From assembly GCA_021325035.1 (NCBI GenBank), contig JAJPHW010000138.1:6910-70909 (forward strand): DNA of 64,000 bases. Direction: 5' to 3'. The DNA is from Terriglobia bacterium. GTDB taxonomy: Bacteria; Acidobacteriota; Terriglobia; Terriglobales; Acidobacteriaceae. The translations under genes were made by a program, and so were the position numbers. Below, piece by piece: positions 32,424 through 61,765 of the stretch. The notes below the pieces were generated by a model. The model was not told the DNA's origin and did not search any database. It was given only the letters and a program-made list of their open reading frames with translations. The stretch's first letter is position 1, and every line of letters begins with the position of its first letter.

Positions 32424-32474
32424 GCCTGATGGTACGAATGGCCGCAAGAATGCCGCAAGTTACCGTGGTGTGGG

Positions 32475-39693: not shown

Positions 39694-41226
39694 TTAGCTG
39701 ATGGCCGGGTTTGGTTTCTCTGGGTTGATGTCGAGGTCTTTCAACGCTTTTTGCACGACATCCACGCCGATCTGTTTTTCCCGCGCCAACGCACTCAAAG
39801 TGGCCAGCACAATGTGCTTGGCATCCACTTCAAAGAAGTCGCGGAGCGAAGCGCGGTTTTCGCTGCGGCCAAATCCATCCGTGCCGAGCGAAACCAGCTT
39901 TCCCGGCACCCATTGTCCGATGGATTCCGGCAGCACCTTCATGTAGTCGGAGGCGGCGATAAAAACGCCCGGCGCATCCTTTAAGGCTTGCGTGACATAG
40001 GGCACGCGCGGCACGGAACCGGGATGCAGCATGTTCCAGCGCTCGCAGTCATTGCCGTCGCGATAGAGTTCCTTGTAGCTGGTCACGCTCCAAACGTCGG
40101 CCGCGACGCCATATTTTTCTTCCAGAATCTGCTGCGCCTTGAGCACTTCGTACATGATGGTTCCGCTGCCGAAGAGTTGCGCGCGAAGCTTCGAGTCTTT
40201 CTTGCTTGAAGCCTTAAAACGGTAGAGGCCTTTCAGAATCCCCTCGCGCACACCGGGAGTGGATGGCATTTCCGGCATGGGCAATGGCTCGTTAGTGATG
40301 GTCAGGTAATAGAAGATATCTTCCTGATCGACGTACATCCGCCTGATGCCATCCTGAATGATGATGGCAAGTTCATAAGCAAACGAAGGATCGAAGGCCA
40401 ACAAGTTCGGCACGGGCAGTGCCAGAACATGGCTGTGGCCATCCTGATGTTGCAAACCTTCGCCGGCAAGGGTGGTGCGGCCAGCGGTGCCGCCCATCAG
40501 GAACCCGCGAGTGCGCATATCGGCGGCGGCCCAGATGAAGTCGCCGATCCGCTGGAAGCCGAACATCGAGTAATAAATAAAGAAAGGAATCGTGTTGATG
40601 CCGTGATTGGCAGCAGCCGTACCAGCGGCGATGAAAGAACACATCGAACCGGCTTCGGTGATGCCTTCTTCCAAAATCTGGCCGTCTTTTGCCTCTTTGT
40701 AATAAAGAAGCGTGTCCATATCCACGGGCTCGTAAAGCTGGCCGACGCTCGAGTAGATGCCGACCTGACGGAACAAAGCCTCCATGCCAAAGGTCCGGGC
40801 TTCGTCAGGAATAATCGGAACAATCAGTTTGCCGATTTCGGGGTCGCGCAATAATTTCGCGAGCATGCGCACAAAGACCATCGTGGTCGAAACTTCGCGG
40901 CCGTCGGTGCCTTTATAAAATTCTTCAAAGTGCGATTCGGAGATGGGGGCAAGCGGCTTGGCGCGCATTTTCCGCGTCGGCATATAACCGCCGAGTTGCT
41001 TGCGCCGCTGCTGCATGTACTCGATTTCCGGGCTGTCGTCGGCCGGACGGTAAAAGGGCGCATCGTGCAATTGCTCGTCGTGAATGGGAATGCCGAAGCG
41101 CGAGCGGAAAGTCGCCAATTCGGCCTCATTCAGTTTCTTTTGCTGGTGGGTGATGTTCTTGCCTTCGCCAGCTTCGCCGAGGCCATAACCTTTAATGGTT
41201 TTGGCGAGGATGATGGTGGGCGCCCC
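39694..41226 (-). CDS. aceE: Pyruvate dehydrogenase E1 (homodimeric AceE type), part downstream of an in-frame TAA
   Basis: Same reading frame as 41227..42375. Translation continues [31 protein letters not shown]... immediately after the stop. The track ORF (474 aa) begins only at a TTG at 41118. Confidence 0.8.
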   Translation of the reverse strand, partial: [510 protein letters not shown]

Positions 41227-42375
41227 TTAGTGATCCACAGCCGAACGGTAGGCCGCATGAACTTTGATGGGATCGTGCCCACCCAGCCGCAAACGTGCCA
41301 GTTGTTCGTCGGAAAGATGCTCGACCATCTTGAGCAGGCGAGGATCACTTCCGAAAAGATTGTGCCGGAAGTATGCTCCGCTCTCGACGAAGTATTTCTG
41401 ATATTGCCCGTCGCTAATTTCCCCGAGACGTTTGACCAGTAGGCCGTCGCGGTCGTTTTGGATGAGCGTATCCCAATCGCCGCCCCAAACAACCTTAATG
41501 ACATTCCATCCAGCGCCACGGAAAATGGCTTCCAGTTCCTGAATAATCTTGCCATTACCCCGGACCGGGCCATCCAGTCGCTGCAAGTTGCAGTTCACAA
41601 CAAAAATCAGATTGTCGAGCTTTTCCCGGGAAGCAAGAGTAATGGAACCGAGCGCTTCGGGCTCATCCATTTCGCCGTCGCCCATGAAAGCCCATACTTT
41701 GCCGCCGGTCGAAGTCTTGAGGCCGCGGTTTTCCAGATAACGGATGAAACGTGCATGATAGATCGCTTGAATGGGACCGAGTCCCATGGAAACGGTGGGA
41801 AATTCCCAGAAATCCGGCATCAGCCAAGGGTGAGGATACGAAGATAGGCCGCCCTCCGGTTTTAGTTCGCGGCGGAAGTTGTGCAATTTTTCAATGCCAA
41901 GCCGCCCTTCCAAATAGGCCCGGGCATAGATTCCGGGCGCGGCATGACCCTGAAAATAAACGACATCGCGATCGCCAGCTTCGGTTTGCGCACGAAAGAA
42001 ATGATTGAAAGCCACTTCATAGAGCGTGGCCGCGGAAGCGAATGTCGAAATGTGTCCACCAATGCCCTCCGTCTTTTTATTGGAGCGGACCACCATGGCC
42101 AGAGCGTTCCATCGAACCAGGCTTTTAATGCGCCGCTCCATATCCTGACTGCCGGGGAACGGAGGCTGCTGGCGCACGGAAATCGTGTTTTGGTAAGGAG
42201 TTGTCGCGGTGAAGGGCAGGTTTACGCCGGCAGAAAGCCGCGCATGCAGCGACAACTGCTGAATCAGGCGCCCCGCGCGTTCAGGGCCACCTTTGGCCAG
42301 CACATAATCCAAAGAATCCAGCCATTCACGCGTTTCAATAACTTCCAGTCCATTTGTCTTCTGCGCCTCAGCCAC
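41227..42375 (-). CDS. aceE: Pyruvate dehydrogenase E1 (AceE type), N-terminal 382 aa ending at a premature in-frame TAA
   Basis: ThDP-binding region GDGEMDEPE...[14 protein letters not shown] is present. It ends ...AYRSAVDH* where full-length AceE proteins continue. Confidence 0.85.
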   Translation of the reverse strand: [382 protein letters not shown]

Positions 42376-42577: not shown

Positions 42578-43171
42578 ATGGCGACAAAAACCGCATCAGG
42601 CAACCACGCAAAAACCGCACAACCTCGCTTACATCAACGTGCCAATGTGATTCAAGAGTTCGGAACGGTGACCCATGCTCTACCGCTGGACTTGGAAGAA
42701 CCTGTTCGTCTGGAGATGACGGAACAACTGAACTTCCTGCTCGCGGACACGATGGCGATTCGCGATCTCTATAAGAAGTCGCACTGGCAGGTGTCAGGGC
42801 CCACTTTTTATCAACTCCATCTTCTTTTCGACAAACATTTCAACGAACAATCTGAGATTGTGGATACCATTGCCGAGCGCATTCAGCTTTTGGGGGGATT
42901 GCCGCTTGCCATGGCCCACGACGTAGCGGAAACAACTCGTGTTGAGCGTCCCCCGAAGGGCCGCGAAGAAGTTCCGGTTCAGATTTCCCGTTTGCTCGAC
43001 GCTCATCAGATTATCATCGGGGCATGCCGACAGTTGGCCAAGCGCGCATCCACGCTGGGCGACGATGGTACGAATGATTTGGCGGTCAGTGATGTTCTGC
43101 GCACCAATGAACTACAAGCGTGGTTTTTGAGTGAACATCTGGTGGATATGCCGCTGGTAAAAGCCGAATAA
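42578..43171 (+). CDS. dps: Dps family DNA-protection/ferritin-like protein
   Basis: 197-aa ORF with AAGGAGA Shine-Dalgarno and the motif LYKKSHWQVSGPTFYQLHLLFDKHFNEQSEIVDTIAERIQLLGG. Confidence 0.9.
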   Translation: MATKTASGNHAKTAQPRLHQRANVIQEFGTVTHALPLDLEEPVRLEMTEQLNFLLADTMAIRDLYKKSHWQVSGPTFYQLHLLFDKHFNEQSEIVDTIAERIQLLGGLPLAMAHDVAETTRVERPPKGREEVPVQISRLLDAHQIIIGACRQLAKRASTLGDDGTNDLAVSDVLRTNELQAWFLSEHLVDMPLVKAE

Positions 43172-43180
43172 CGCTTTGAT

Positions 43181-44086
43181 CTAGCCTTTAAGAACGGCCA
43201 TTACGATCAACACAACCGGCAGGTAGAGAACGGAAGCGTGCAGTAAACGGCTGGCCATTTTACGCGAGGCGGATTCTGACAGCTTGATGGAGTGGTAGAG
43301 CAGGAATCCGCCGGCCAGCACCATGCTCAAGGTATAAGCGGGGCCGCCGCGATCTACGAATGGCAGTAATGTGGTGACGATTAAAGCTACAGTAAAAGCC
43401 ACAATTTCTGCCCGCGTGAACTTGGAATCCAAATCGAAACTCGGCAGCATTTTGTATCCCGCGCGCTCATAGTCTTCGCGGTACATCAGCGCAATTGCCA
43501 GAAAATGCGGGAACTGCCACAAAAACAAGATGGCGAAGAGGTACCAGGCGTGCAGACTAATGCTGGCCGTTGCGCCAGCCCATCCGATGAGCGTGGGCAT
43601 CGCGCCGGGAAAGGCTCCAAGCATGGTGCAAAGCGGAGTCTTGCGCTTCAGCGGCGTGTAAATCAGAAGATAGGACAACAAAGTCGAAACCGCTAACGCG
43701 GAAGCCAGCCGGTTGACCGTCAGCGCCAGGTAAATTCCCCCGGCCAAGCTCAAAGAAACGCCAAAGATAAAAGCTTCCAACGGGCTCACACGCCCCGAAG
43801 GCAGGGGCCGATTGGCGGTGCGGCGCATCTGGCCGTCCCACACGCGCTCCATCCATTGATTTAAAGTCGCGGTGCCGCTGGCCACTAATAACGTGCCGAT
43901 CAGCGTATGCACCAATCCCGCCCATTGGAAACTACCTTTGCCGCCCAAATAGTAGCCGGCCGAGGTGGTCATCAAAATAAGCAGGTTCACTTCCGGCTTG
44001 GTCAGGGTGTAATAATCCCGCAATTTGGTGACAAGCAGAGACGGAAGCGTCACGTTCGGAGGAGCTACTGTTTGAGTAGATGCCAT
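43181..44086 (-). CDS. ctaB: Protohaem IX farnesyltransferase (haem O synthase)
   Basis: 301-aa polytopic UbiA-family ORF with NQWMERVWDGQMRRTANRPLPSG and FLWQFPHFLAIALMYREDY. Confidence 0.9.
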   Translation of the reverse strand: MASTQTVAPPNVTLPSLLVTKLRDYYTLTKPEVNLLILMTTSAGYYLGGKGSFQWAGLVHTLIGTLLVASGTATLNQWMERVWDGQMRRTANRPLPSGRVSPLEAFIFGVSLSLAGGIYLALTVNRLASALAVSTLLSYLLIYTPLKRKTPLCTMLGAFPGAMPTLIGWAGATASISLHAWYLFAILFLWQFPHFLAIALMYREDYERAGYKMLPSFDLDSKFTRAEIVAFTVALIVTTLLPFVDRGGPAYTLSMVLAGGFLLYHSIKLSESASRKMASRLLHASVLYLPVVLIVMAVLKG

Positions 44087-44096
44087 TATTCGGTCG

Positions 44097-44402
44097 TTAC
44101 CAGTCCCGCTCAGAGGCAGCAGCGCTTTCAGGATTTGCGAATTGGTTCCGCTTGCGATATGCCATTACGGTCACGCCCACCGATAAAAATGCCGGCGGAA
44201 TGACCAGCACCAAAATGCCGCTACGCAACGATTGAATGACACGCTGTCCAGCCGATGCCGCTTGCGTGTAACAGAGTGCGCAACTCTGGGCGTGAGCTGC
44301 CGGCAAAACGAGAGCAAGGAAACACACTCCCAACATCCAATGCCAAGCCCGAATCTGTGTGAAGCCTTTCACTCGCCCCATGGTCACAATCGCCACTCTC
44401 AA
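44097..44402 (-). CDS. Small membrane protein with a periplasmic CxxC motif (oxidase-operon associated)
   Basis: About 100 aa. It has a signal peptide ending AHA-QSCALCY and one TM helix (GILVLVIPPAFLSVGVTVMAY). Its start (TTG 44402 or ATG 44381) overlaps or abuts the subunit IV stop. Confidence 0.5.
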   Translation of the reverse strand: MRVAIVTMGRVKGFTQIRAWHWMLGVCFLALVLPAAHAQSCALCYTQAASAGQRVIQSLRSGILVLVIPPAFLSVGVTVMAYRKRNQFANPESAAASERDW

Positions 44403-44713
44403 TGATAACTCGAATATGGCACGCCGCCTACAATCCGGAAAGCATCGGGCCAGCTATATTGCAAAGTTGCCAGCACGAACAAAACAAAAATGGAGACAAA
44501 AATCAGCAATGCGCGCTTCTCGCTCCACAGGTGCATAAAGAAGAGAACGCCAAGTGCAGCTTCCAGCATCGCTAACAAAAACATGCGGACAAACATTTCC
44601 GAATAGCTGGCGGAGTGGTAGGCCACAACAAACTGCAATCCGGCAATGGCCAGAATACAAACGTAAACCACCAAGTATCTGCCAAGTCCGCTAGCTTGAT
44701 CATTTGTGCTCAT
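44399..44713 (-). CDS. Cytochrome c oxidase subunit IV (prokaryotic COX4 family)
   Basis: 104-aa ORF with three TM helices and the typical LVVYVCILAIAGLQFVVAY...FMHL pattern. Confidence 0.75.
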   Translation of the reverse strand: MSTNDQASGLGRYLVVYVCILAIAGLQFVVAYHSASYSEMFVRMFLLAMLEAALGVLFFMHLWSEKRALLIFVSIFVLFVLATLQYSWPDAFRIVGGVPYSSYH

Positions 44714-44737
44714 GATTCGGCTCCTGCGTCTGAAAAT

Positions 44738-45358
44738 TTAGTGACTCAAGTTCAACAGATAAATGAACGGAACCACGAACATCCAAACCAAATCCACAAA
44801 GTGCCAATAAAGGCCCAGCACTTCAATATCATCGGCGTTGTAACGCCCTCCTTGATAGCGGAATCCCACCACTATCAAAGCAATTACGCCGCAAGTGACG
44901 TGAAACAAGTGAAGTCCGGTAATGCTGTAAAACGCCGATCCGAATAAACCCGTTCCCCATGGATTTTTGAAAATGGTCATGCCTTCTTCGATCAGTTGAG
45001 ACCATTCCCGCAAGTGGAGCAGTCCGAACAAGATGCCGAGGGCCGCGGTCATCAAGATCCAGCGAAAGGCTTTTCCTTTGTCTCCCGCTCGCGCCGCGCG
45101 CATGCCGATCAGCATGGTCAAGCTGCTCGTGACCAGAATGAAGGTCATGATGGCGACGTTGGTAATGCTGTGGAAAGGCGTTGGCCAATTGGGCGTGGAG
45201 TTGCGCAGAAATCCATAAGCAACCAGACACGCCGCGAACGTCATAGCGTCAGAAATAATGAACAGCCACATCGCAAGCTTTTTCGAAGGAATGGAAAACG
45301 GCGACGGTTCCATGGCTCCGGATTGGTGCGCTCCGAGGGCGATATTGGCTTGGCTCAC
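44738..45358 (-). CDS. coxC: Cytochrome c oxidase subunit III family protein (second of two)
   Basis: GTG start at 45358 lies 4 nt after AGGAGG. Motifs seen: LAMWLFIISDAMTFAA, GLHLFHVTCGV, YWHFVDLVWMFV. Confidence 0.8.
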   Translation of the reverse strand: MSQANIALGAHQSGAMEPSPFSIPSKKLAMWLFIISDAMTFAACLVAYGFLRNSTPNWPTPFHSITNVAIMTFILVTSSLTMLIGMRAARAGDKGKAFRWILMTAALGILFGLLHLREWSQLIEEGMTIFKNPWGTGLFGSAFYSITGLHLFHVTCGVIALIVVGFRYQGGRYNADDIEVLGLYWHFVDLVWMFVVPFIYLLNLSH

Positions 45359-45381
45359 AGTGCCTCCTGAAATGTTGTGGT

Positions 45382-46044
45382 CTAAATCTTGCTCCAAAGC
45401 ACAAACAGCAGGTACAACCACAAGACGTCCATAAAATGCCAGTAATGCGATGCCGCATCCAGCGTGCTCTTCCGAAGAATGCCTTTATGGAAACGGCGGA
45501 TTACATATCCCAATCCTAATAGTCCGCCCAGCACATGCAGCGCATGGATAGTGGTGAACACATAGAAGAACGAGCTATTCGGACTGGTCGCGATGTAAAG
45601 CCCCTGTGCGCGCAACTGCATCCACGCGATGTATTGCCCGGCGACAAACAGCAGACCCAAGCCCATCGTGGCATGCAGCCAGAATGCAGGATTGGAAATT
45701 TTCGTTCCACCCATGAATAAAGCAATGCGCTTACGCGCAGTTTGTAAAGTGAAACTACTGATCAACAACAGAACCGTATTGAAATACAAAATCGGAGGCA
45801 GCGTTAAGTGCTTCCAATCCGGCGCTCCACCTTTGCGCACCACCAGTGCGCTGGTGAAAGCAAAAAATGACATGGTGATAGCGGCAATCCCCACCCAAAC
45901 CGCAGTACTAGCAGGAGGCGGAGAATAATTGTCCAACTTCTTGAGGTCACCCCCAGTTGTAACGTTATTTCTGCCGCCGTCGCCCGAAGTCGTGCGAGGC
46001 GTGCGGCCTAAATCAATCGGTGGTTCGTGAACAGTCGTTGCCAT
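45382..46044 (-). CDS. coxC: Cytochrome c oxidase subunit III family protein (first of two)
   Basis: 220-aa ORF with FYVFTTIHALHVLGGL and HYWHFMDVLWLYLL. Confidence 0.8.
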   Translation of the reverse strand: MATTVHEPPIDLGRTPRTTSGDGGRNNVTTGGDLKKLDNYSPPPASTAVWVGIAAITMSFFAFTSALVVRKGGAPDWKHLTLPPILYFNTVLLLISSFTLQTARKRIALFMGGTKISNPAFWLHATMGLGLLFVAGQYIAWMQLRAQGLYIATSPNSSFFYVFTTIHALHVLGGLLGLGYVIRRFHKGILRKSTLDAASHYWHFMDVLWLYLLFVLWSKI

Positions 46045-46061
46045 GAGTTACTTCTCGTCTC

Positions 46062-47870
46062 TTATTTCTCATCCCCGGGTGTTGCCACTTGCTCCGGCGA
46101 AGTTTGCATCACATAGTCGCCCATCGAGCCTTGTACCCCGTATTGATAAGGATCGTGATAGACGACGATGTGCTTGCCGTTAAAGTTGTTCCAGGACGGC
46201 GGTGAATCGGTTGACCACTCGAGCGATGTGGCCTCCCATGGATTTTCCGTCGCTTTCGCACCCCAGAAGCGGCTATGGATCAGGTTGTAAAGGAAGATAA
46301 GCTGTGCGAATCCAGTAAACAGCGCAGCCACTGTGATGAACTTGTGTACTGGAATAAGCGGTTGCAGGTAATCATCAACAAACGCCTGATAGCGGCGGAT
46401 ATTGGCGGCAAGCCCCAAATAATGAAATGGCATGAACAGGGCGTAGGCGCCGACAAACGACATCCAGAAGTGAACTCTGCCCAAGGTTTCGTTCATCATG
46501 CGTCCGGTCATCTTGGGGAACCAGAAATAGGTTCCGGCGAAGATGCCGAACATCGCCGCCACGCCCATCACCATGTGGAAGTGACCGACGACGAAATAAG
46601 TCGCGTGTAAAAGAATGTCGAGCGAAGGTTGCGCGAGGAAGAATCCGCTGACGCCCCCGCTGATAAACATGGAGATGAAACCAAGCGCGAACAGCGATGC
46701 CGAGTTAATTCGAAGGCGTGAGCCGTAGAGACTCCCCAGCCATATCAATACGATGATCGTGGCGGGAATCGTAATGACCAGCGTCGGGAAAGAAAAAACC
46801 AGAGCCGAGAACGGGTTCATGCCGCTCACAAACATGTGATGGCCATAAACCACATAGCTCAGGAAGCCAATGCCCATCATGCAATAGATAAGCACGCGAT
46901 GGCTGAGCATGGGTTTGCGCATATTCGTGACCAGAATGTGCGAAACCACGCCCATCGCAGGGACGATCGCGATATACACCTCTGGGTGCCCGAAGAACCA
47001 GAAAAGATGCTGCCACAGAAGCGTTGAGCCGCCGGAGTGAGGCAAGAGCTTGTCGTTAATCACGAGGCCCGAAGGAATAAAGAAGCTCGTTCCAGCAACG
47101 TGATCGAGAATCAGCAGAATGCAGGCCGGGAGCAGAACTGCAAATGCGGTGAGACCGATACAGGAAGTAATGAACCAAGCCCACGCGGAAAGCGGCAGGC
47201 GCATAAGCGACATGCCTTTGGTGCGCATGTCGAGAGTGGTGGAAATGAAGTTGAGAGCGCCAAGTAGCTGGCCGATGCAGAACAATCCGATCGAGGCTGC
47301 CCACAGAACCGCTCCGGTACCTTGACCGGGGCCAGACGCCGATCCGACTGCACTGAGCGGGGCATACTGCGTCCAACCGCCGAGCGTGGGGCCATCCCCG
47401 ACGATAAACGAGGCGACCAAGACGAGAAAGGCCATGAAGGTCACCCAAAACGACATCATGTTAAAACGGGGGAAGGGCATATCCTCAGCGCCGACCTGGA
47501 TGGGCAAAAAGAAATTGCCGAAGGCCGCAAATGGCGCAGTGGTCAAAACGAAAAAGACCATAATGGTGCCGTGCATGGTCATTAACTGCAAATAAAATTC
47601 AGGCGTGATTACGCCGCCCGGCGCTCCAGTGCTGGAGAGTAATTGCGTGCCGGGAATGGCCGCGTTCGTCCAGCCCAAATGGATGCGCATGATCCAGGAA
47701 AGCATCATGCCGAAAAACGCAGCCACGAGGGCCAGCGCATAGTATTGCTTGCCGATTACTTTATGGTCCGTACTGAAGATGTGCTTACGGATAAAAGTTG
47801 TCGGTGGACCATGATGCGTCGCGTGAGATACATCGTGCATGCTGCTCACCTCGAGAAAGTTTTTGCTCAC
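46062..47870 (-). CDS. coxA: Cytochrome c oxidase subunit I (haem-copper oxidase, A-type)
   Basis: 602-aa ORF with FFGHPEVYI, GMISHI-like VVSHILV and HHMFVSGM, and about 12 TM helices. Confidence 0.92.
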   Translation of the reverse strand: MSKNFLEVSSMHDVSHATHHGPPTTFIRKHIFSTDHKVIGKQYYALALVAAFFGMMLSWIMRIHLGWTNAAIPGTQLLSSTGAPGGVITPEFYLQLMTMHGTIMVFFVLTTAPFAAFGNFFLPIQVGAEDMPFPRFNMMSFWVTFMAFLVLVASFIVGDGPTLGGWTQYAPLSAVGSASGPGQGTGAVLWAASIGLFCIGQLLGALNFISTTLDMRTKGMSLMRLPLSAWAWFITSCIGLTAFAVLLPACILLILDHVAGTSFFIPSGLVINDKLLPHSGGSTLLWQHLFWFFGHPEVYIAIVPAMGVVSHILVTNMRKPMLSHRVLIYCMMGIGFLSYVVYGHHMFVSGMNPFSALVFSFPTLVITIPATIIVLIWLGSLYGSRLRINSASLFALGFISMFISGGVSGFFLAQPSLDILLHATYFVVGHFHMVMGVAAMFGIFAGTYFWFPKMTGRMMNETLGRVHFWMSFVGAYALFMPFHYLGLAANIRRYQAFVDDYLQPLIPVHKFITVAALFTGFAQLIFLYNLIHSRFWGAKATENPWEATSLEWSTDSPPSWNNFNGKHIVVYHDPYQYGVQGSMGDYVMQTSPEQVATPGDEK

Positions 47871-47895
47871 CCCATCCAGGGATGGCCTGCCTGAT

Positions 47896-48705
47896 TTACT
47901 GCAATGCCGCCTGTTGTTTCAGCCAATTGTCGTAATCGGACTGCGACATCACTTCGAGATACGCTTTCATGTTGTAGTGACCAAGTCCGCACAACTGCGT
48001 GCAGACGATTTCATACTTGCCGACCTTGGTCGCCGTGAAATGCAGCGACAGGTCGAGACCGGGGACGAAATCCTGCTGCACGCGCAATTCAGGAACAAAG
48101 AAGGAGTGCCCCAAGTCCTTTGAGTGCATCAGCAGATGGATTTCCTTGTTCACGGGGATTGCCATTTCCGCAGCGACGATGTCGTCTTTGGAGGCAGCGT
48201 CGTTCGTCGTGTCTAAGCCGAAATAGTTCTGGTTGCCTTCGTTGATCAGTTCCGGATGCAAGGGACCAAACTTCCCGTCTGGGCCGGGATAGCGGAAATA
48301 GAATGCAAACTGACCGGCCTGCACTTGTATCGGCAACGCGTCCGCGGCAGGCGGCTGGAAATACACACTGGCCCAGGCTTTGGTTCCGAAAACACCAAGC
48401 GCGAGGACCTCCGTACCCACCAACAGGAACCCAGCAATCACCATTGCCTTTGCGCCACCGGGAAAGTAGCCGAGCTTGTCTTTCGTGGTGTGGTTGCCAA
48501 ACGACCAGATGAACCATGCGAGCAGGATTTGCGAGGCCAGAAATGCCACGCCCGCTTCGATCATGGTGTCTTTCATCTGGTGGTCAATCAGATAACCATG
48601 CGTGGAAATATCCTGCGGCGCTGCGGTAAACCAACTATTGGCAATAATGGGATATGCCGAAGCAATGGCAATGACGAAAATCGTGACCGCAAAAAACTTG
48701 GCCAT
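47896..48705 (-). CDS. coxB: Cytochrome c oxidase subunit II (CuA domain only, no fused cytochrome c)
   Basis: 269-aa ORF with two N-terminal TM helices. CuA ligands: LHF...VCTQLCGLGHYNM. Confidence 0.9.
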   Translation of the reverse strand: MAKFFAVTIFVIAIASAYPIIANSWFTAAPQDISTHGYLIDHQMKDTMIEAGVAFLASQILLAWFIWSFGNHTTKDKLGYFPGGAKAMVIAGFLLVGTEVLALGVFGTKAWASVYFQPPAADALPIQVQAGQFAFYFRYPGPDGKFGPLHPELINEGNQNYFGLDTTNDAASKDDIVAAEMAIPVNKEIHLLMHSKDLGHSFFVPELRVQQDFVPGLDLSLHFTATKVGKYEIVCTQLCGLGHYNMKAYLEVMSQSDYDNWLKQQAALQ

Positions 48706-48760
48706 GACGAAACGCCTCCGAGCGAATTGAACGCGTGTTGCTGAGACCGGAACCGGGAAT

Positions 48761-48839
48761 CCGGATTTTCAAATCTCTCAAGCGGACTGTTGTGTGAGAG
48801 ATTTAAAAATCCGGCCGCCGCAACCAAATTGCAGCGGCC
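48761..48839 (-). other. Two adjacent stem-loops between the cupredoxin gene and coxB (terminator/attenuator-like)
   Basis: On the - strand RNA there are two hairpins. The first is GGCCGCUGCA-loop-UGCGGCGGCC (10 bp, one G-U), followed by GGAUUUUUAAAUC. The second has a 20-bp stem, CCGGAUUUUUAAAUCUCUCA-14 nt-UGAGAGAUUUGAAAAUCCGG (one G-U). The U-run of the first hairpin is part of the second stem. Confidence 0.55.
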
Positions 48840-48844
48840 AAATC

Positions 48845-49582
48845 TTATTTCGCCTTGAACGTAAAGTTCGCGCTCGCAGCCTTGCCCGCAGCGACGGTTA
48901 CCTGCTGCGTTTGTGTGCCATAAGTTTCCTGCCATGCAGTCAGGGTGTAGCTTCCGGGGGCTACATTCGACAACGTGAAGGCGCCACTGTCATCGCTCAC
49001 CCCATAAGGCCCTTTCACAACTGCGATATAGCCGTGCATCCAAGGGTGAATATTGCACTTCACAGGAACGGCGATTTCCTCGTTCGCCCAAGTCACGTCA
49101 AACGGCGCCGATCCGGGCGGTTGTGATTTATTCCACTCCGCATTCTTCGTTGGCTGCGGGTGAATGTTGTGCGAAGTCGAGTCGGAATTGACGACCTTCA
49201 TGTGTTGACCGGCATCGAGGGCCACAACGTGCGGAATATATTGACAGCCTTTTTGCGTCAAGGTAACGGCATCGGAAGAGGCCGCTTCGTTACCGCTCAA
49301 CCCCTGGCTAATGTAAACCACTACGTTGGCCAAACCGCCATTTGCGCCAGCGACAACCGACTCCATCATTGCCGGTTTGTCTTTATGGATCGCCGCGCAG
49401 CTGGGTTCCTTGGACATGTCAATACCCTTTTGGTGCGGAGCCACGCCATCCAGTTTCACGGTTCCAGTGATGCTGGAACCTGACGGCGGAGCCGCACTCA
49501 CGCTACTCCCCAAGATCAGCGCGCCCATCATCATAAACACTACGGCGAATAGTACAACAACTGATTTTTTATGACTTTTCAT
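48845..49582 (-). CDS. Secreted cupredoxin (type-1 copper-like) protein with CarboxypepD_reg-like C-terminal sandwich
   Basis: 245-aa ORF with a signal peptide. Candidate T1Cu ligands are SHNIH...(~37 aa)...KCNIHPWM (C-x2-H-x2-M). The C-terminus is SGAFTLSNVAPGSYTLTAWQE. Confidence 0.7.
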   Translation of the reverse strand: MKSHKKSVVVLFAVVFMMMGALILGSSVSAAPPSGSSITGTVKLDGVAPHQKGIDMSKEPSCAAIHKDKPAMMESVVAGANGGLANVVVYISQGLSGNEAASSDAVTLTQKGCQYIPHVVALDAGQHMKVVNSDSTSHNIHPQPTKNAEWNKSQPPGSAPFDVTWANEEIAVPVKCNIHPWMHGYIAVVKGPYGVSDDSGAFTLSNVAPGSYTLTAWQETYGTQTQQVTVAAGKAASANFTFKAK

Positions 49583-49611
49583 TTACTCCCTCTCCTGATT
49601 GCGAAATTGTT

Positions 49612-50514
49612 TTACGGTTGACCGCCCGACGATGCAGCCGGAGCTGCCGGCGCAGGAGCGTTCGGATCAATCGGTTTCAAACCAAGCTGCTTGGCAATGG
49701 CTCTTTCTTTCATGTTGTAAGCATTCTTGGGTTGGAGCGTACGCAGATAGAAAACGAGATCCCAAGCCTCATCTGGTTTCACATTGTCAATGAAGGATGG
49801 CATCGGTGTCCCGTCCAAACCAGACATGAAGATCTTGTAGATGTCGCGATCCGTGCTTCCGCATTTAGGCCGCGAGCCTTCGGTGAAATTGTACGGCTTG
49901 ATGGGACGATTTTGATCGTCCTGAAGGGTGTCCGACGATGGCCCATTTGCCCGACCTTCGACACCGTGACACTTCCAGCACTCCAGCTTTTGGAACAAAG
50001 CCTGCCCCGCTTTGACGCGGTCAGCTGTAACTTCTGGTTCAGCCGGAATCGGGAAAACTTCTCCAGCCTTTTCGGTGGTCCACTTCGATGAGAAGTGTTT
50101 GACGTAGGCCACTAAATCAACTTTGTCCTGATTGGTGAGCTGGTTCCAAATTGGCATGACCGAACGGTCAAAACCTCGCCCGACGGAGTTGTAAAGGTCT
50201 TCGTCGGTCGGCAGGGTACCACTCGGCGTCGAGCGGCACTTGAACTGACCCAGCGTGAAGTTGCGGGGTTGAGGATCAAGCCATTGGGCATTTTCACCTT
50301 GGCCGTCGCCCTCGACGCCGTGACAGCCTACGCAATAACGGCGGTAATTCGCCTGAGCATCGGCGGCGTGTCCGGTGTATTTGCCGACGTGGGCTTCCAT
50401 GTTAAGCCGTTGATCTTCCTGGTACTTTGTCATTTGCGCCCAGGAGACCGCGGACATCAAGAGCAGCGAAGCTGCCCCCAGCAGTAACGACGATTTCATG
50501 AATTTGGTTTCCAT
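49612..50514 (-). CDS. Dihaem c-type cytochrome
   Basis: 300-aa ORF with a signal/anchor peptide. It has two CxxCH motifs (CVGCH, CWKCH) with candidate distal Met (SVMPIW, TPMPSF). Its start is 11 nt after the upstream stop. Confidence 0.85.
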   Translation of the reverse strand: METKFMKSSLLLGAASLLLMSAVSWAQMTKYQEDQRLNMEAHVGKYTGHAADAQANYRRYCVGCHGVEGDGQGENAQWLDPQPRNFTLGQFKCRSTPSGTLPTDEDLYNSVGRGFDRSVMPIWNQLTNQDKVDLVAYVKHFSSKWTTEKAGEVFPIPAEPEVTADRVKAGQALFQKLECWKCHGVEGRANGPSSDTLQDDQNRPIKPYNFTEGSRPKCGSTDRDIYKIFMSGLDGTPMPSFIDNVKPDEAWDLVFYLRTLQPKNAYNMKERAIAKQLGLKPIDPNAPAPAAPAASSGGQP

Positions 50515-50525
50515 CGTTTTCTCTC

Positions 50526-51884
50526 CTAGAATGCAAAGTCAAATCCCAGCAACAACTCGCTGCTGGTCAGGTCTGTGCCATCTGGCGCCGCCTTGGACTG
50601 TCGTAGCCAGTTGTACTCGTTATGCCAGGCAAAACCAGCCCGGCTGGTCATGATCGGCATGTAGCGGTAGCCGATCGTGAAGGTCTGAATATTGCCCGCG
50701 TCGGAGGGTGTCGCCGCCAACGCTTGCTGCGAAACGTTGATGCCCTCATATCTCCCGATGAAAATAAGCTGCGGACTGAACACGTAATGGGGCTCAACCA
50801 GGAAGCCATTCCATGTCGCATTCCGCGCTCCAGCGGGAAGCGCTCCCGAAGGTACGTTACCCGGAACCGGGTTGTAGGGCGAAGTTGCAGTTGCGAAATA
50901 CTTGTCATCGGAACCGTGCTGCGTAACCACCTGGAAGTCAAGTTTTCCTAGGTATATTTGGCCGGTAAATCCATAGCGGCTGAAACTCTTGTTCCCAAAA
51001 CCCGTGCCGGGAATCGGAACCCCTCCGGAGCTTAGGAATTGGGTCGGAGCCTCGCCGACCATGGCATAGAAGCCGAGCCTTTGCACGCCCAACTTTCCAG
51101 TATCAAAAGCTTGGCTCGCTGCAAAGAATCCGCTGTAGGAATTGCCGGCAGGCAAGCCGACCGTCCCGTCGTTCGAACTTAACAAGGCTGCCGAAACGCG
51201 GGTGCGGTCGTTATAGGAGTGACCCATGTATTCCACGCCCAGTTGGTTGTCGCCGATCTGGCCATAGCCGTTGGTGTCTCCCAGTGGCGAGAAGTGATAG
51301 AGCTGATAAATTCCACCGTTCCCAGTCAGAGTCAGAATGCGCTTTTCGGAGAGCAGGTTGTCCAATTCAAACTTACCCAGCTTCACGTTGAGCCACGTCG
51401 AGCCGAACAGGTTGTCGAGCCGGGCCATCACCGTTTCAAAGTGGAAGGAAGCAGTGTTGTCGGAAGAAGGGAGCACGTAAAACGAAATATTTTTATCCAG
51501 CGTGCCGCCGGTATGGAAGTCGAGGCCACTTAGGTCAAAACCGTGAGAAGTAATTTGAACTTCGCCGGTGTTCGGCCCTGCCGCCGTATCTACGCCAACC
51601 TTGTCGGTGCTTACACGATGCCAAATTGGAGTAATACGAAAGGTCACCGGCCAGTAAGAAGGGTTTTGCCAGATTGGGGCATCCCTGTCATTCATAAGCT
51701 GGTAGCCATTGTCTTTAAACTTTTGACCAAATGGATTCAGTTGGGGCCACGCTTCGTGGCAGGCAGAACAACGCAGTCCGTACTTGCGAGCAAAAGCCGG
51801 TAAGGCATGGGCATCACTAAAACCGGCAAACACAAAGCAAGCAAGGAAAAGCAGGCCCGCGACCCACTTACGGGGGAGACTCAT
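50526..51884 (-). CDS. Putative fused monohaem cytochrome c / outer-membrane beta-barrel protein (Cyc2-like architecture)
   Basis: ATG at 51884 after AGGAGGA, with a signal peptide ending DAHA. The single CSACH lies in LPAFARKYGLRCSACHEAWPQLNPFG. It is followed by ~420 aa with about 16 amphipathic strand-like segments and the terminus ...LLLGFDFAF. Confidence 0.65.
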   Translation of the reverse strand: MSLPRKWVAGLLFLACFVFAGFSDAHALPAFARKYGLRCSACHEAWPQLNPFGQKFKDNGYQLMNDRDAPIWQNPSYWPVTFRITPIWHRVSTDKVGVDTAAGPNTGEVQITSHGFDLSGLDFHTGGTLDKNISFYVLPSSDNTASFHFETVMARLDNLFGSTWLNVKLGKFELDNLLSEKRILTLTGNGGIYQLYHFSPLGDTNGYGQIGDNQLGVEYMGHSYNDRTRVSAALLSSNDGTVGLPAGNSYSGFFAASQAFDTGKLGVQRLGFYAMVGEAPTQFLSSGGVPIPGTGFGNKSFSRYGFTGQIYLGKLDFQVVTQHGSDDKYFATATSPYNPVPGNVPSGALPAGARNATWNGFLVEPHYVFSPQLIFIGRYEGINVSQQALAATPSDAGNIQTFTIGYRYMPIMTSRAGFAWHNEYNWLRQSKAAPDGTDLTSSELLLGFDFAF

Positions 51885-51974
51885 TCGATCCTCCTGAAAC
51901 GGAAGCATTTTAGAAGCAAGCACTGAGAACACGCGCAGTGACCGGGAGTTATTTTCTAGTGCACGTGGACGCAC

Positions 51975-52004
51975 TAATTATCATGAGAAAAAATTTGGTG
52001 TCAA
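51975..52004 (-). promoter_or_regulatory. Putative strong sigma70 promoter of the cytochrome-porin/oxidase cluster
   Basis: On the - strand: TTGACA, 18-nt spacer, TAATTA with an extended -10 TG (caTGaTAATTA). It lies ~90 nt upstream of the ATG at 51884 and is followed by an AGTGC-N8-GCACT inverted repeat. Confidence 0.5.
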
Positions 52005-52068: not shown

Positions 52069-52770
52069 CTAACAAGAGACCGCCAGAATGGTTGCAAGCC
52101 GAGTTGCAACGTCCCTTTCGCTATGCCGGTCACGGCCCAAAACTTCCGGACGGAGGAAGCCGAATACAAACCCGAAGACCCCTATTGCGCAAGTCATGTT
52201 CTTCATACCGCCTTCCTGAAGACGCTGCCCCTCAGGAAAATGCTTCAGACGGCCAGTCATCGCGCGCATTCTGCCGGACTCGACAAGTTCGCCAAGTACT
52301 TTGCCTAGGGAAGGATCCACCATGGCTCGCGACACTACAATGCGAAGAAAATCGCGGTCCTCCCACATGCGGTCAATTTCCCATTGAACCAGCCGCACGA
52401 ATTCTTGAGCAAAATTTTGGGCATGTGGTACCCGGTTTAAGTCATTCATTTCCAGCCGCATGCGGTCGCGAACCAAAGCCAGCAGCAATCCGGCTTTACC
52501 GCCGAAGTAGCGATGAATCAATCCCTCGGCGCAACCCGCAACCGTGGCAATCTCTCGGGTAGTTGCCGCCTCGTAGCCTTTGGAAGAAAAAAGTTTGATG
52601 CCCGCGAGCAGCAAAGCTTTTTCTTTGGCAGCGCGATCACGAATTCGTGGTGCCGAAGACCGATTTTTTGCCACACGCAGCGCGCTATTGATGGCTTCTT
52701 TGGTAGAGTTATGTTCCTGAAAATGCATGGATAGAAGATCGCCCCTAACGAATTGAACGGACATTAGCAC
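52069..52770 (-). CDS. TetR/AcrR family transcriptional regulator
   Basis: HTH region KALLLAGIKLFSSKGYEAATTREIATVAGCAEGLIHRYF. Start uncertain (GTG 52770, ATG 52764 or ATG 52728). Confidence 0.85.
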   Translation of the reverse strand: MLMSVQFVRGDLLSMHFQEHNSTKEAINSALRVAKNRSSAPRIRDRAAKEKALLLAGIKLFSSKGYEAATTREIATVAGCAEGLIHRYFGGKAGLLLALVRDRMRLEMNDLNRVPHAQNFAQEFVRLVQWEIDRMWEDRDFLRIVVSRAMVDPSLGKVLGELVESGRMRAMTGRLKHFPEGQRLQEGGMKNMTCAIGVFGFVFGFLRPEVLGRDRHSERDVATRLATILAVSC

Positions 52771-53795: not shown

Positions 53796-55019
53796 TTGTT
53801 GGCTGCTTTGCTTAGCTTGGAAGCATTTGCCCAGAATGCGAACGTGCGAACTTTCTCGCAACCTAAAGCTGCAATTGAGAAGGCTCTTCACAGCCTGCAA
53901 CCAACTTCGGGCCGCCTCCCCACTCTCGAAGGGTTCGTCCAAGAGGAAGGACAGAATCTCAAACAATTTCAGAGGGGTTTCTACGAATGTTCTGTCGCCG
54001 TCGCAGCCAATTCTTCAGGCGGATCAACTGTTCACGTGCAAGCCAAAATTACGGCTTGGTACCAAGACCCGACGGCGGCAAAGTCGGGCTATCGCGCCCT
54101 GCCCTCCAACGGAAGGCTGGAAGCCGACTTGCTCGATCGTCTCGACGATGCGTTGCAGAATGGCGCCGCCCCGGTTTCATCCGCGAAACAGCCAAGCAAT
54201 AGTTCGATTGCTTCCAAAACCAGCGATTCCGATTCATCCGCGCCCAAATTGATGGCCCCCATGCCTCAGTTGCCCACGGTGAATAATCCCCTGACCGGTT
54301 CCAGTATTGGCGCGCCGTCGAGCGACAGGAATGGGGTTTCACAAACTCAGCGGCAGCCACATCAAGGCCCGGATGGGCAACTCGCGGCATTGCTCAATGA
54401 AGAAAAGAACCTGGAAGAAATTTTGCGAAACCAGAATCATCCTAATAATTTGGCTGCGGTAAAGAAGAATGGCGCTCCCGTGCTGGCCAGCCCCGCGGAA
54501 GGCGCAAAAATTTTATTTACCGCCGCGCCAGAAGACGAATTTGAAGTACTCGATGAAAACACAAGCTGGGTGCATGTGCGGATTTCTGGCCTGTCGCGCG
54601 GCTGGATTTTACGCGCAAATCTTGAAATGCCGGGAGATGCCGTGCAGGGCAAATCTTCTGAGCCATCCCAGCAATTCCGCGTGACCAATGACCAGATCGT
54701 CTCATTTCCCGGCGACTGGGAACCGCTGCGTGGAAAGACGGTCAAGATCGTTTCCGTGCAAGCGACTAGCGATTCGATTATCGGATGGCGCGCCAAACTC
54801 GATTACGCCAAAACAGTATTTCGAAACGACTACGAAGCTTTGGCCGCATCAGGTGGTGAGTCGGGTGAAGTGCTCATCTTTGATGCGCAGGATGGCGGCA
54901 TGATCGCTGCAACTTTGGAAAACGTTAAGAAATGGCGTGACGGCGCGCTCACCGATGACGCCTTCTGGAAGATTTGTTATTTTGACCCGCCGGAGACGTT
55001 TGGAGCCGCAAGCCAGTAG
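53796..55019 (+). CDS. Hypothetical protein with SH3-like domain (paralogous N-terminal module to 52906..53772)
   Basis: 407-aa ORF; start uncertain because the signal peptide looks truncated. SH3-like segment: AAVKKNGAPVLASPAEGAKILFTAAPEDEFEVLDENTSWVHVRISGLSRGWI. Its N-terminal LPSNGRLEADLLDRL parallels HPSNGTVETSEFHDIQDRV in the neighbour. Confidence 0.6.
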   Translation: MLAALLSLEAFAQNANVRTFSQPKAAIEKALHSLQPTSGRLPTLEGFVQEEGQNLKQFQRGFYECSVAVAANSSGGSTVHVQAKITAWYQDPTAAKSGYRALPSNGRLEADLLDRLDDALQNGAAPVSSAKQPSNSSIASKTSDSDSSAPKLMAPMPQLPTVNNPLTGSSIGAPSSDRNGVSQTQRQPHQGPDGQLAALLNEEKNLEEILRNQNHPNNLAAVKKNGAPVLASPAEGAKILFTAAPEDEFEVLDENTSWVHVRISGLSRGWILRANLEMPGDAVQGKSSEPSQQFRVTNDQIVSFPGDWEPLRGKTVKIVSVQATSDSIIGWRAKLDYAKTVFRNDYEALAASGGESGEVLIFDAQDGGMIAATLENVKKWRDGALTDDAFWKICYFDPPETFGAASQ

Positions 55020-55169: not shown

Positions 55170-55244
55170 TTGGAGGCGCGGGTCGGAATCGAACCGACGC
55201 ATAAAGGTTTTGCAGACCTCTCCCTTACCACTTGGGTACCGCGC
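55170..55244 (-). tRNA. tRNA-Cys (anticodon GCA)
   Basis: The reverse complement GGCGCGG...CUGCAAA...GGTTCGATTCC...CCGCGCCTCCA folds as a cloverleaf: 7-bp acceptor stem, T-loop TTCGATT, encoded CCA. Confidence 0.93.
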
Positions 55245-55325
55245 CTTGCTTTCTAAATTAACGGGCTTGGGCGAAAAAGTCCACCGCAGGAGCAGGCCGC
55301 TAAATAGCTCAATTGTGAGGGAAAA

Positions 55326-55400
55326 TGGAGCGGGAGACGAGGGTCGAACTCGCGACATCGACCTTGGCAAGGTCGCGCTCTACCACTGAGCTACTCCCGC
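55326..55400 (-). tRNA. tRNA-Gly (anticodon GCC)
   Basis: The reverse complement is GCGGGAGTAGCTCAGTGGTAGAGCGCGACCTTGCCAAGGTCGATGTCGCGAGTTCGACCCTCGTCTCCCGCTCCA. It has a canonical D-loop, the anticodon loop TTGCCAA and an encoded CCA. Confidence 0.95.
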
Positions 55401-61093: not shown

Positions 61094-61765
61094 ATGAGCA
61101 CCGGTTCTATTCCCCGCATTAATGACACCGCCCCCGACTTTACCGCCGAAACGACGCAAGGTACGATTCATTTTCACGAATGGATCGGCGACGGCTGGGC
61201 GATTCTGTTTTCCCATCCCAAAGACTTCACGCCGGTTTGCACCACTGAGTTGGGCGCAATGGCAGGCCTGCAACCTGAATTTGCCAAACGCAACACAAAG
61301 ATCATCGGATTGAGCGTCGATCCCGTGAGCAGCCACGGCAAATGGGCCGTGGATATCGAAGAAACTCAAGGACACAAAGTCAATTACCCAATGATCGGCG
61401 ATCCGGAGTTAAAGGTGGCGAAACTTTATGGCATGTTGCCAGCGGAGAGCGGTAGCACTTCGGATGGCCGCACTGCAGCCGACAACGCCACGGTTCGTAC
61501 TGTCTTTGTGATTGGCCCGGACAAGAAAGTCAAACTACAACTAAGCTATCCAATGACCACAGGCCGCAACTTTGACGAAATCCTGCGCGTGATTGATTCG
61601 CTTCAGTTGACCGCCAAACACAAAGTGGCAACGCCCGCGAACTGGAAGCAGGGCGATGACGTCATCATCAGCGGATCGGTTTCCAACGAAGATGCGCAGA
61701 AGATTTATCCCAACGGGTGGAAGGCTCCCCGGCCTTATTTGCGCATCGTACCGCAACCCAAATAA
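61094..61765 (+). CDS. 1-Cys peroxiredoxin (Prx6-like)
   Basis: 223-aa ORF with AAGGAGA Shine-Dalgarno and WAILFSHPKDFTPVCTTELG (peroxidatic Cys). Confidence 0.9.
   Translation: MSTGSIPRINDTAPDFTAETTQGTIHFHEWIGDGWAILFSHPKDFTPVCTTELGAMAGLQPEFAKRNTKIIGLSVDPVSSHGKWAVDIEETQGHKVNYPMIGDPELKVAKLYGMLPAESGSTSDGRTAADNATVRTVFVIGPDKKVKLQLSYPMTTGRNFDEILRVIDSLQLTAKHKVATPANWKQGDDVIISGSVSNEDAQKIYPNGWKAPRPYLRIVPQPK

Follow-up and report, generated by a model that had tools for sequence, protein, structure and literature searches.

What donor supplies the electrons when the genes for an acidobacterial aa3-type oxidase are preceded, in one contiguous cluster, by those for an outer-membrane cytochrome-porin and two predicted periplasmic carriers? 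The question is raised by a gene cluster on the minus strand of a 64,000-nt stretch of DNA from Terriglobia bacterium GCA_021325035.1 (contig JAJPHW010000138.1, positions 6,910-70,909, forward strand), referred to throughout as the window. A sequence-only reading of this DNA had likened the cluster to the Acidithiobacillus ferrooxidans rus operon and suggested a dedicated pathway from an extracellular donor to O2. We find that the cluster encodes the parts list for an electron route leading from the outer membrane to O2 and is conserved as a unit. Respiration from Fe(II) to O2 is the best reading that we can offer from the genes alone, and we give it about an even chance of being correct. The matter extends beyond one genome, as iron oxidation in soil and peat is commonly attributed to chemistry or to a small number of specialist lithotrophs.

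Conservation of the cluster and independence of its leading genes

One genome per GTDB species was scanned for the pattern PAFARKYG[LVM], derived from a 9-sequence alignment, which yielded at least 594 confirmed places. The counts of loci in species-level relatives given below are from the best 80 of these, which are 66-89% identical; denominators are the informative loci among those 80, and a cluster was counted as "full" through coxD. The three leading genes, encoding the Cyc2 homologue (cyc2), a dihaem cytochrome and a cupredoxin, and termed the trio hereafter, occur in order in 74/76 informative loci, and the full cluster keeps its order as far as coxD in 67/70 informative species-level Terriglobia loci. 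The preservation of this order, and of the Cyc2 motif set in every orthologue considered (87/87, see below), argues that the arrangement is more than a product of chance. The four functional layers recognized by the sequence-only reading (haem-porin, dihaem cytochrome, blue-copper protein and A-type oxidase) are indeed encoded contiguously and are conserved as a unit; each gene that it listed on the minus strand was found at its position, and the gaps that it had measured, of 11 nt from cyc2 to the dihaem gene, 29 nt from there to the cupredoxin gene and 139 nt in the spacer before coxB, are exact.

The best 80 of the at least 594 places are all in metagenome-assembled genomes (MAGs), named as Terriglobales, Terriglobia, Acidobacteriaceae, Candidatus Sulfotelmatobacter or Candidatus Acidoferrum, with one Candidatus Binatia, and many bear isolate names pointing to peat, palsa, bog or soil surveys. 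A contig of MAG GCA_037025025.1 matches the window at 97.2% identity over 21 kb. An intact cluster is likewise present in the clade of P0151, whose Cyc2 is 49% identical to that of the window; one member of its sequence cluster is named Candidatus Acidoferrales. A divergently transcribed pair of genes for secreted proteins borders the cluster in 69/74 informative loci and is found in the clade of P0151 as well; in many relatives a second UbiA/ctaB-like gene comes after this pair.

The trio is also encountered apart from the oxidase. Two species-level MAGs (L027 and L028) retain cyc2, the dihaem and cupredoxin genes and ctaB, with no cox genes within 8 kb downstream. In distant clades, with Cyc2 identities of 29-37%, a dihaem cytochrome follows Cyc2 in 4/5 cases, while one distant Cyc2 homologue is an orphan. 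In two distant clades (33-35% Cyc2 identity) Cyc2 and the dihaem cytochrome are flanked by proteins in which a cupredoxin lies within CarboxypepD_reg, with C-D-A-H-x-W/H-M loops, and no aa3 oxidase was found near the trio in those two clades; one distant trio has a cytochrome bd oxidase gene a few kb away. Because the trio recurs in distant lineages and without cox genes, its three genes can be regarded, on gene content, as a module of their own. Among the loci examined, only those of Terriglobia had the trio joined to an aa3 operon. Cyc2-family genes were met on two plasmids as well: on that of Caballeronia sp. SBC1 (L093) the gene lies between genes for a high-potential iron-sulphur protein (HiPIP) and a c-type cytochrome, and on that of the peat-bog Methylocystis sp. 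MJC1 (L094) three c-type cytochrome genes come after it.

Assignment of the leading gene to the Cyc2 family

Whether the first gene is related to Cyc2 was the key test named by the sequence-only reading itself. Members of this family are recognized by a signal peptide, a single CXXCH, an upstream AXPXFAR[Q/K][T/Y] motif and a PXL motif 4 residues downstream (PMC8406198, Keffer 2021), and further by a length of at least 365 aa and a 16-strand porin resembling OprP/OprO (PMC8406198). In the window, the open reading frame (ORF) of cyc2 reaches 51974; a start at the ATG at 51884, with AGGAGG 7 nt ahead of it, gives a protein of 452 aa with a signal peptide, which by inspection is MSLPRKWVAGLLFLACFVFAGFSDAHA ahead of the family motif and which coincides with a helix at residues 3-20 in an AlphaFold2 (AF2) model. 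CSACH, near the N-terminus, is the sole CXXCH in the 452 aa, and C39, C42 and H43 are invariant in alignments. The haem region reads ...SDAHA-LPAFARKY-GLR-CSACH-EAW-PQL..., with the motif ALPAFARKY at a distance from the haem equal to that in Acidithiobacillus Cyc2 (ALPSFARQT-GWS-CAACH), and with PQL 4 residues past CSACH, its proline (P47) being invariant. The 87/87 orthologues mentioned above were counted with a slightly relaxed form of AXPXFAR[Q/K][T/Y], plus CXXCH, plus PX[L/F].

Comparison with Acidithiobacillus Cyc2 by BLASTP gave 51% identity over the 43-aa haem region (E 6e-11). With the rus operon of Acidithiobacillus ferrivorans (L008, reached via rusticyanin) as the reference, alignment of a 47-member family profile to its Cyc2 by hhalign returned a probability of 97.5% and an E value of 7e-12 over 379 columns. 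Overall identity of the window protein to that of A. ferrivorans is 18%; published Cyc2 clusters differ at 17-23% identity from one another (Fig. S7, PMC8406198). The AF2 model (predicted local distance difference test, pLDDT, 83.8; predicted template-modelling score, pTM, 0.80) contains 16 strand elements by DSSP, spanning residues 80-451, after a short helical haem region, and its best Foldseek matches in the PDB are OprP 2o4v (E 1.5e-13) and OprO 4rjw, the templates reported for Cyc2 (PMC8406198). Searches of Pfam and NCBIfam with the porin-cytochrome returned no named family, only a sub-threshold match to the BBP2 porin, and a sequence search of the PDB gave no match. Since the motif criteria, the profile homology and the predicted OprP/OprO-like fold agree, we file the protein as a member of the Cyc2 family, as the sequence-only reading had supposed. 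Its relatives number 2589 representatives at the 50% identity level at E up to 1e-3, and 165 at E up to 1e-30.

The periplasmic carriers

The dihaem cytochrome matches chain B of PDB entry 6h5l with an E value of 1.9e-55, about half of the residues (~50%) being identical over ~210 aa that include both haem motifs. The record of 6H5L chain B reads "conserved hypothetical cytochrome protein", and we take it to be the partner of an octahaem enzyme resembling hydroxylamine oxidoreductase (HAO) in the anammox bacterium Kuenenia; its homologue in the window is instead paired with a Cyc2 porin and a cupredoxin. A match to the NCBIfam model for cytochrome 579 is weak (E 2e-13, 50 bits vs a cut-off of 280), and BLASTP against Cyc1 of the A. 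ferrivorans rus operon aligned only the haem motif (E 0.007 over 13 aa), with no real similarity.

The third protein gave no cupredoxin match to Pfam or the PDB by sequence, only a C-terminal CarboxypepD_reg domain. A profile of its orthologues matched the cupredoxin 5fc9 in the PDB (E 0.0016), and an AF2 model (pLDDT 80) was matched by Foldseek to 5fc9, amicyanin, pseudoazurin and plastocyanin, all with probability 1.00 and with target TM-scores of 0.55-0.70. The presumptive copper ligands are H138, C176, H179 and M182, of which H138, H179 and M182 are invariant in orthologue alignments and C176 is invariant or nearly so; the ligand loop C-N-I-H-P-W-M (C-x2-H-x2-M) has the spacing of amicyanin. 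The cupredoxin domain, at about residues 105-190, is inserted between the first strand and the remainder of the CarboxypepD_reg sandwich. On the basis of the profile match, the predicted fold and the conserved ligand set, we assign the third gene to the type-1 copper cupredoxins, with a Greek-key beta-sandwich and predicted copper binding. By hhalign the family shows a probability of 0.2% to rusticyanin, and likewise 0.2% to Cup/ORF1.

The oxidase and its accessory protein

Subunit II (CoxB) carries the CuA motif C-x3-C-x3-H-x2-M (CTQLCGLGHYNM) and its translation lacks a CXXCH, hence a fused cytochrome c, which agrees with the earlier description of coxB as CuA only. Subunit I (CoxA) contains FFGHPEVY, i.e. 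the helix-VI glutamate motif GHPEV, and scores 532 bits against TIGR02891, under the equivalog cut-off of 671. The oxidase is assigned to the A1-type aa3 enzymes with a CuA-only subunit II, and by virtue of that subunit it should need separate carriers. Toward the end of the cluster (Table 1) a small protein is encoded that has a signal peptide, a mature N-terminus of QSCALCYTQAA and a C-terminal helix ending in KRNQF; its CxxC is present in 72/72 orthologues and QSCALCYT in 51 of 72. We would guess that this secreted or membrane-anchored protein has a role in copper handling or oxidase assembly.

Table 1. Features of the cluster and its borders (positions in nt of the window, or of the locus where one is named).
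Feature	Position	Strand	Evidence and remarks
tetR, TetR-family regulator	52069-52770	-	Pfam TetR_N, E 7e-14; directly upstream of cluster
Predicted sigma-70-type promoter	51977-52004	-	TTGACA-16-GATAAT, 11/12 positions
Inverted repeat, candidate TetR operator	51957-51976	-	TAGTGCG-N6-TGCACTA
cyc2, Cyc2-family outer-membrane monohaem cytochrome-porin, 452 aa	50526-51884	-	Motifs, profile, AF2 model
Periplasmic dihaem cytochrome c, 300 aa	49612-50514	-	CVGCH and CWKCH; Pfam Cytochrom_C and Cytochrome_CBB3, two stretches
Predicted periplasmic type-1 copper cupredoxin in CarboxypepD_reg sandwich, 245 aa	48845-49582	-	Profile, AF2 model, ligands
Structured spacer, 139 nt	48706-48844	-	RNA fold
coxB, oxidase subunit II	47896-48705	-	Pfam COX2, TIGR02866
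coxA, haem-copper oxidase subunit I, type A1	46062-47870	-	Pfam COX1, E 1e-120; TIGR02891, E 1.5e-159
Two subunit III genes	45382-46044 and 44738-45421	-	Pfam COX3 both; both kept in related loci
coxD, subunit IV	44399-44713	-	Pfam COX4_pro, E 3e-6, just under gathering score; kept in related loci
Small CxxC protein	44097-44402	-	No Pfam/NCBIfam family match
ctaB, haem O synthase	43181-44086	-	TIGR01473, 266.5 bits vs cut-off 210.3
Divergent secreted pair, 288 aa and 407 aa	52906-53772 and 53796-55019	+	Second: SH3_3, E 1.4e-6
~290-aa STAS gene of related loci	L018 13203-14147; L024 13073-13981; L025 13476-14333; L051 13104-13973; L069 13334-14200; L074 13279-14145		Disrupted in L039

Comparison with known systems

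The label "rus-operon-like" given to the cluster by the sequence-only reading is apt in respect of design, the coxBACD order included, and not in respect of descent. As in the rus operon (Acidithiobacillus ferrooxidans/ferrivorans, cyc2-cyc1-cup-coxBACD-rus), a Cyc2 porin comes first, a dihaem cytochrome, a copper protein and an aa3 oxidase with a CuA-only subunit II are encoded, a haem O synthase gene is nearby, and outer membrane and oxidase are covered within one cluster; COX2, COX1, COX3 and COX4_pro follow in order in the window, the same enzyme family in another operon lineage. In contrast, only Cyc2 (~18% identical overall, 51% in the haem region) and the oxidase (29% identity between the two CoxA proteins) are homologous. 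The second gene of the window is no relative of c4/Cyc1, its best solved relative being 6h5l_B, and the cupredoxin, while of a common fold class, is unrelated in sequence to rusticyanin and Cup and precedes the oxidase genes instead of following them. Two subunit III genes and the small CxxC protein are further peculiarities of the window, and its host is an acidobacterium, probably heterotrophic, whereas that of the rus operon is an acidophilic autotroph. Horizontal acquisition of a rus operon was considered and rejected in view of the 29% CoxA identity and the unrelated carriers. We regard the cluster as a parallel assembly, in which the likeness is one of design rather than descent.

The Cyt572/Cyt579 system of Leptospirillum similarly combines an outer-membrane Cyc2-family cytochrome with a periplasmic c-type cytochrome, although the dihaem protein of the window reaches the cytochrome 579 model only at the low score given above. 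The oxidase of Leptospirillum is of the cbb3 type. A published similarity network connects Leptospirillum Cyc572 with homologues from Acidobacteria and Nitrospira that form a dense cluster (PMC10654088). The Cyc2 proteins of neutrophiles (Mariprofundus PV-1, Gallionellaceae, Chlorobium) share the motifs and the predicted 16-strand fused cytochrome-porin, their hosts, as a point of difference, being lithoautotrophs; broad functional support is limited to this neutrophile Cyc2 cluster (PMC8406198).

The sequence-only reading professed awareness of no well-described trait of this kind in the phylum. That statement needs to be narrowed, as FeGenie-based surveys have already listed unclassified Acidobacteriota MAGs carrying cyc2 as putative iron oxidizers (PMC13594681); we nevertheless found no published description of this cluster in the literature searched. 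Candidatus Acidoferrum owes its name to iron cycling, chiefly the reduction of iron (PMC7980381), and the acidobacterial oxidases have been described as bc1-caa3 and ACIII-caa3 superoperons (ACIII, alternative complex III) plus "single" oxidases, with porin-cytochromes unmentioned (PMC8407424, Trojan 2021).

Predicted promoter, candidate operator and structured spacer

The best promoter-like site of the region lies ahead of cyc2 (52004..51977). It is the site singled out by the sequence-only reading, which had given it an 18-nt spacer and an extended TG; it is read here two bases earlier, as TTGACA-16-GATAAT. In the form TTGAC..N16..(A/G)TGATAAT it is kept in the close relatives L005, L010, L011, L012 and L053. 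As a consensus match this is a predicted promoter, a match alone being no proof of function. The promoter scan overall returned 3 sites vs 7.4 expected, i.e. no enrichment, and its count was rejected as evidence; only the quality and conservation of this particular site are taken into account.

Directly abutting the -10 hexamer is an inverted repeat, which the earlier reading had offered as a 5-N8-5 binding site for the TetR regulator that it had correctly placed immediately upstream, and which is here refined to 6-N6-6. Counted across loci by the consensus AGTGCG-N6-CGCACT, with one mismatch per arm permitted, the repeat stands upstream of cyc2 in 18/19 loci with an adjacent tetR vs 2/61 without (Fisher p ~1e-14), adjacent tetR genes being present in only 19/80 related species loci. 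Given this co-occurrence, the repeat is likely the TetR operator. The TetR repressor would probably gate the promoter, in this strain and some relatives, by binding the repeat, and the candidate repressor-operator pair could reveal the inducing signal. The true start of tetR probably lies about 14 codons inside the ORF, since the gene is called at 219 aa in the near-identical locus L001.

The spacer between the cupredoxin gene and coxB is structured, as had been claimed: its predicted fold has an energy of -62.2 kcal/mol (z = -5.4, with 0/200 shuffles as good) and includes two strong hairpins. The first (~48813-48839), a terminator-like GC stem followed by a T run, comes directly after the stop codon of the cupredoxin gene and is kept in L010, L011, L042 and L066; the second (~48763-48812) has 18 bp. 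A comparison of the spacer with Rfam gave no family match. The first hairpin would fit partial termination, leading to more transcript for the carriers than for the oxidase. In roughly nine related species this interval, between the cupredoxin gene and coxB, is occupied by a gene of ~290 aa that is absent from the window (Table 1); its product combines a METAIGVF...GVPE domain at the N-terminus with a STAS (anti-sigma-factor antagonist) domain at the C-terminus (TIGR00377, E 1e-18), along with a glycine-rich membrane stretch.

Function of the cluster

In the scheme that we favour, dissolved Fe(II) would enter the narrow barrel and be oxidized at the one haem that the Cyc2 homologue carries; some other small reductant from outside the cell could take its place. 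The electron would then pass by way of the dihaem cytochrome and the cupredoxin to the CuA of the oxidase, which would reduce O2 and pump protons. Because the genes around the cluster are ordinary ones of heterotrophs (pyruvate dehydrogenase, an MscS channel, TonB-domain proteins and others), Fe(II) oxidation would serve as a supplementary and facultative source of energy, not as obligate lithotrophy. We infer both the donor and the direction of electron flow; oxidation of Fe(II) is favoured because all biochemically tested members of the Cyc2 family are Fe(II) oxidases (PMC8406198), because small solutes such as Fe2+ are all that the narrow barrel of Cyc2 is predicted to let in (PMC8406198), and because the module is bound to a proton-pumping oxidase.

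Several considerations weigh against this scheme. The function of Cyc2 outside the neutrophile cluster is considered uncertain (PMC8406198). The genomes found to carry the cluster, as judged from the best 80 of at least 594 places, are all MAGs. Members of the Cyc2 family are found in Ralstonia, Caballeronia, Paraburkholderia and Methylocystis as well, beside HiPIP or c-type cytochromes, and to our knowledge none of these genera is known for iron oxidation. The cluster is kept in at least hundreds of genomes of heterotrophs and may serve them in some core function that is not lithotrophy; the two carriers could equally well handle electrons delivered by a bc1 complex or an alternative complex III whose genes lie elsewhere; and no genes for carbon fixation or reverse electron flow were found within the window.

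Some of these same points lend themselves to a second explanation, namely that the cluster belongs to an ordinary aerobic chain, in which, during growth on organic carbon, the two carriers link a quinol:cytochrome c oxidoreductase encoded elsewhere (a bc1 complex or alternative complex III) to the aa3 oxidase, and the Cyc2 homologue has a side role, for example in sensing redox state, in keeping the periplasm in redox balance, or in moving metal or haem for assembly of the oxidase. A subunit II without a fused cytochrome c calls for soluble carriers whatever the source of electrons, the cluster is near-universal in an uncultured lineage, Cyc2 homologues are found in bacteria not known to oxidize iron, and Acidobacteriaceae possess several A-type oxidases, among them "single" ones away from complex III genes (PMC8407424). 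This explanation accords poorly, however, with the placing of the porin-cytochrome gene at the head of the unit, a mere 11 nt before that of the dihaem cytochrome, and with the cohesion of the trio where oxidase genes are absent. The persistence of the trio without an oxidase argues that the carriers' tie to the outer-membrane protein is no looser than their tie to the oxidase, and we consider the ordinary chain an unlikely account of the cluster, if one deserving serious attention.

It is improbable, in our estimation, that the chain is primarily protective, burning off Fe(II) in the envelope against Fenton damage in acidic, redox-fluctuating soil with any gain of energy being incidental. A Dps gene (42578-43171) adjoins ctaB in the window, a peroxiredoxin gene lies at 61094-61765, and the cluster in this strain appears to be under a repressor rather than constitutive; on the other hand, Dps adjoins the cluster in the closest relatives only, an A1 oxidase that pumps protons conserves energy no matter what the chain is for, and the mechanism overlaps that of Fe(II) respiration. 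Equally hard to credit is an outward flow of electrons at O2 shortage, in which they would leave the periplasm by way of the Cyc2 homologue for Fe(III) complexes or humics, the carriers acting as a branch point between O2 and extracellular acceptors: a link to Fe(III) reduction has been drawn for uncultured Acidobacteriia (Candidatus Acidoferrum) and for Acidobacterium capsulatum (PMC7980381), and a cytochrome bd oxidase gene is found a few kb away from one distant trio, but the unit is contiguous, and possibly co-transcribed, with an aa3 oxidase of low affinity, the tested Cyc2-family proteins are all Fe(II) oxidases (PMC8406198), and a single haem behind a narrow pore is ill-suited to insoluble acceptors.

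Returning to Fe(II)-to-O2 respiration, a broader proposition can be framed, which we advance tentatively and with slightly less than even confidence: that many uncultured Terriglobia, which rank with the most abundant bacteria of soil and peat, are facultative Fe(II)-oxidizing lithoheterotrophs, by means of a chain not described before that consists of Cyc2, a dihaem cytochrome resembling 6H5L_B, a cupredoxin embedded in CarboxypepD_reg and an aa3 oxidase, and that the trio is a portable module for electron uptake from the outer membrane into the periplasm, joined in other lineages to different terminal acceptors. If this were true, abundant heterotrophic Acidobacteriota (at least 594 matching places in genomes of GTDB species) would be feeding electrons from Fe(II) to O2, and models of iron-carbon coupling, of the protection of organic matter by iron oxides and of redox cycling at oxic-anoxic interfaces would change. 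A compact and highly conserved module of three genes also provides a test case for the function of Cyc2 outside the classic iron oxidizers.

Other features of the window

The Dps/ferritin-like gene is on the plus strand, convergent to ctaB, and among the relatives it was found beside the cluster only in the closest, L001 and L010. Beyond it, a pyruvate dehydrogenase E1 gene (39694-42375, minus strand) is split by an in-frame TAA at 41227-41229. The 97%-identical contig L001 has AAA (Lys) at this site and an intact gene of 893 aa; the TAA may be a true nonsense mutation, or else a mistake of sequencing or assembly. On the other side, just past the divergent secreted pair, are two tRNA genes on the minus strand (55174-55245 and 55329-55400; Rfam RF00005, 66 and 67 bits). 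Two adjacent genes for large proteins (29140-30945 and 31011-32447, minus strand) both encode C-terminal TonB_C domains, and the product of the first has in addition an N-terminal response-regulator receiver domain, an unusual combination.

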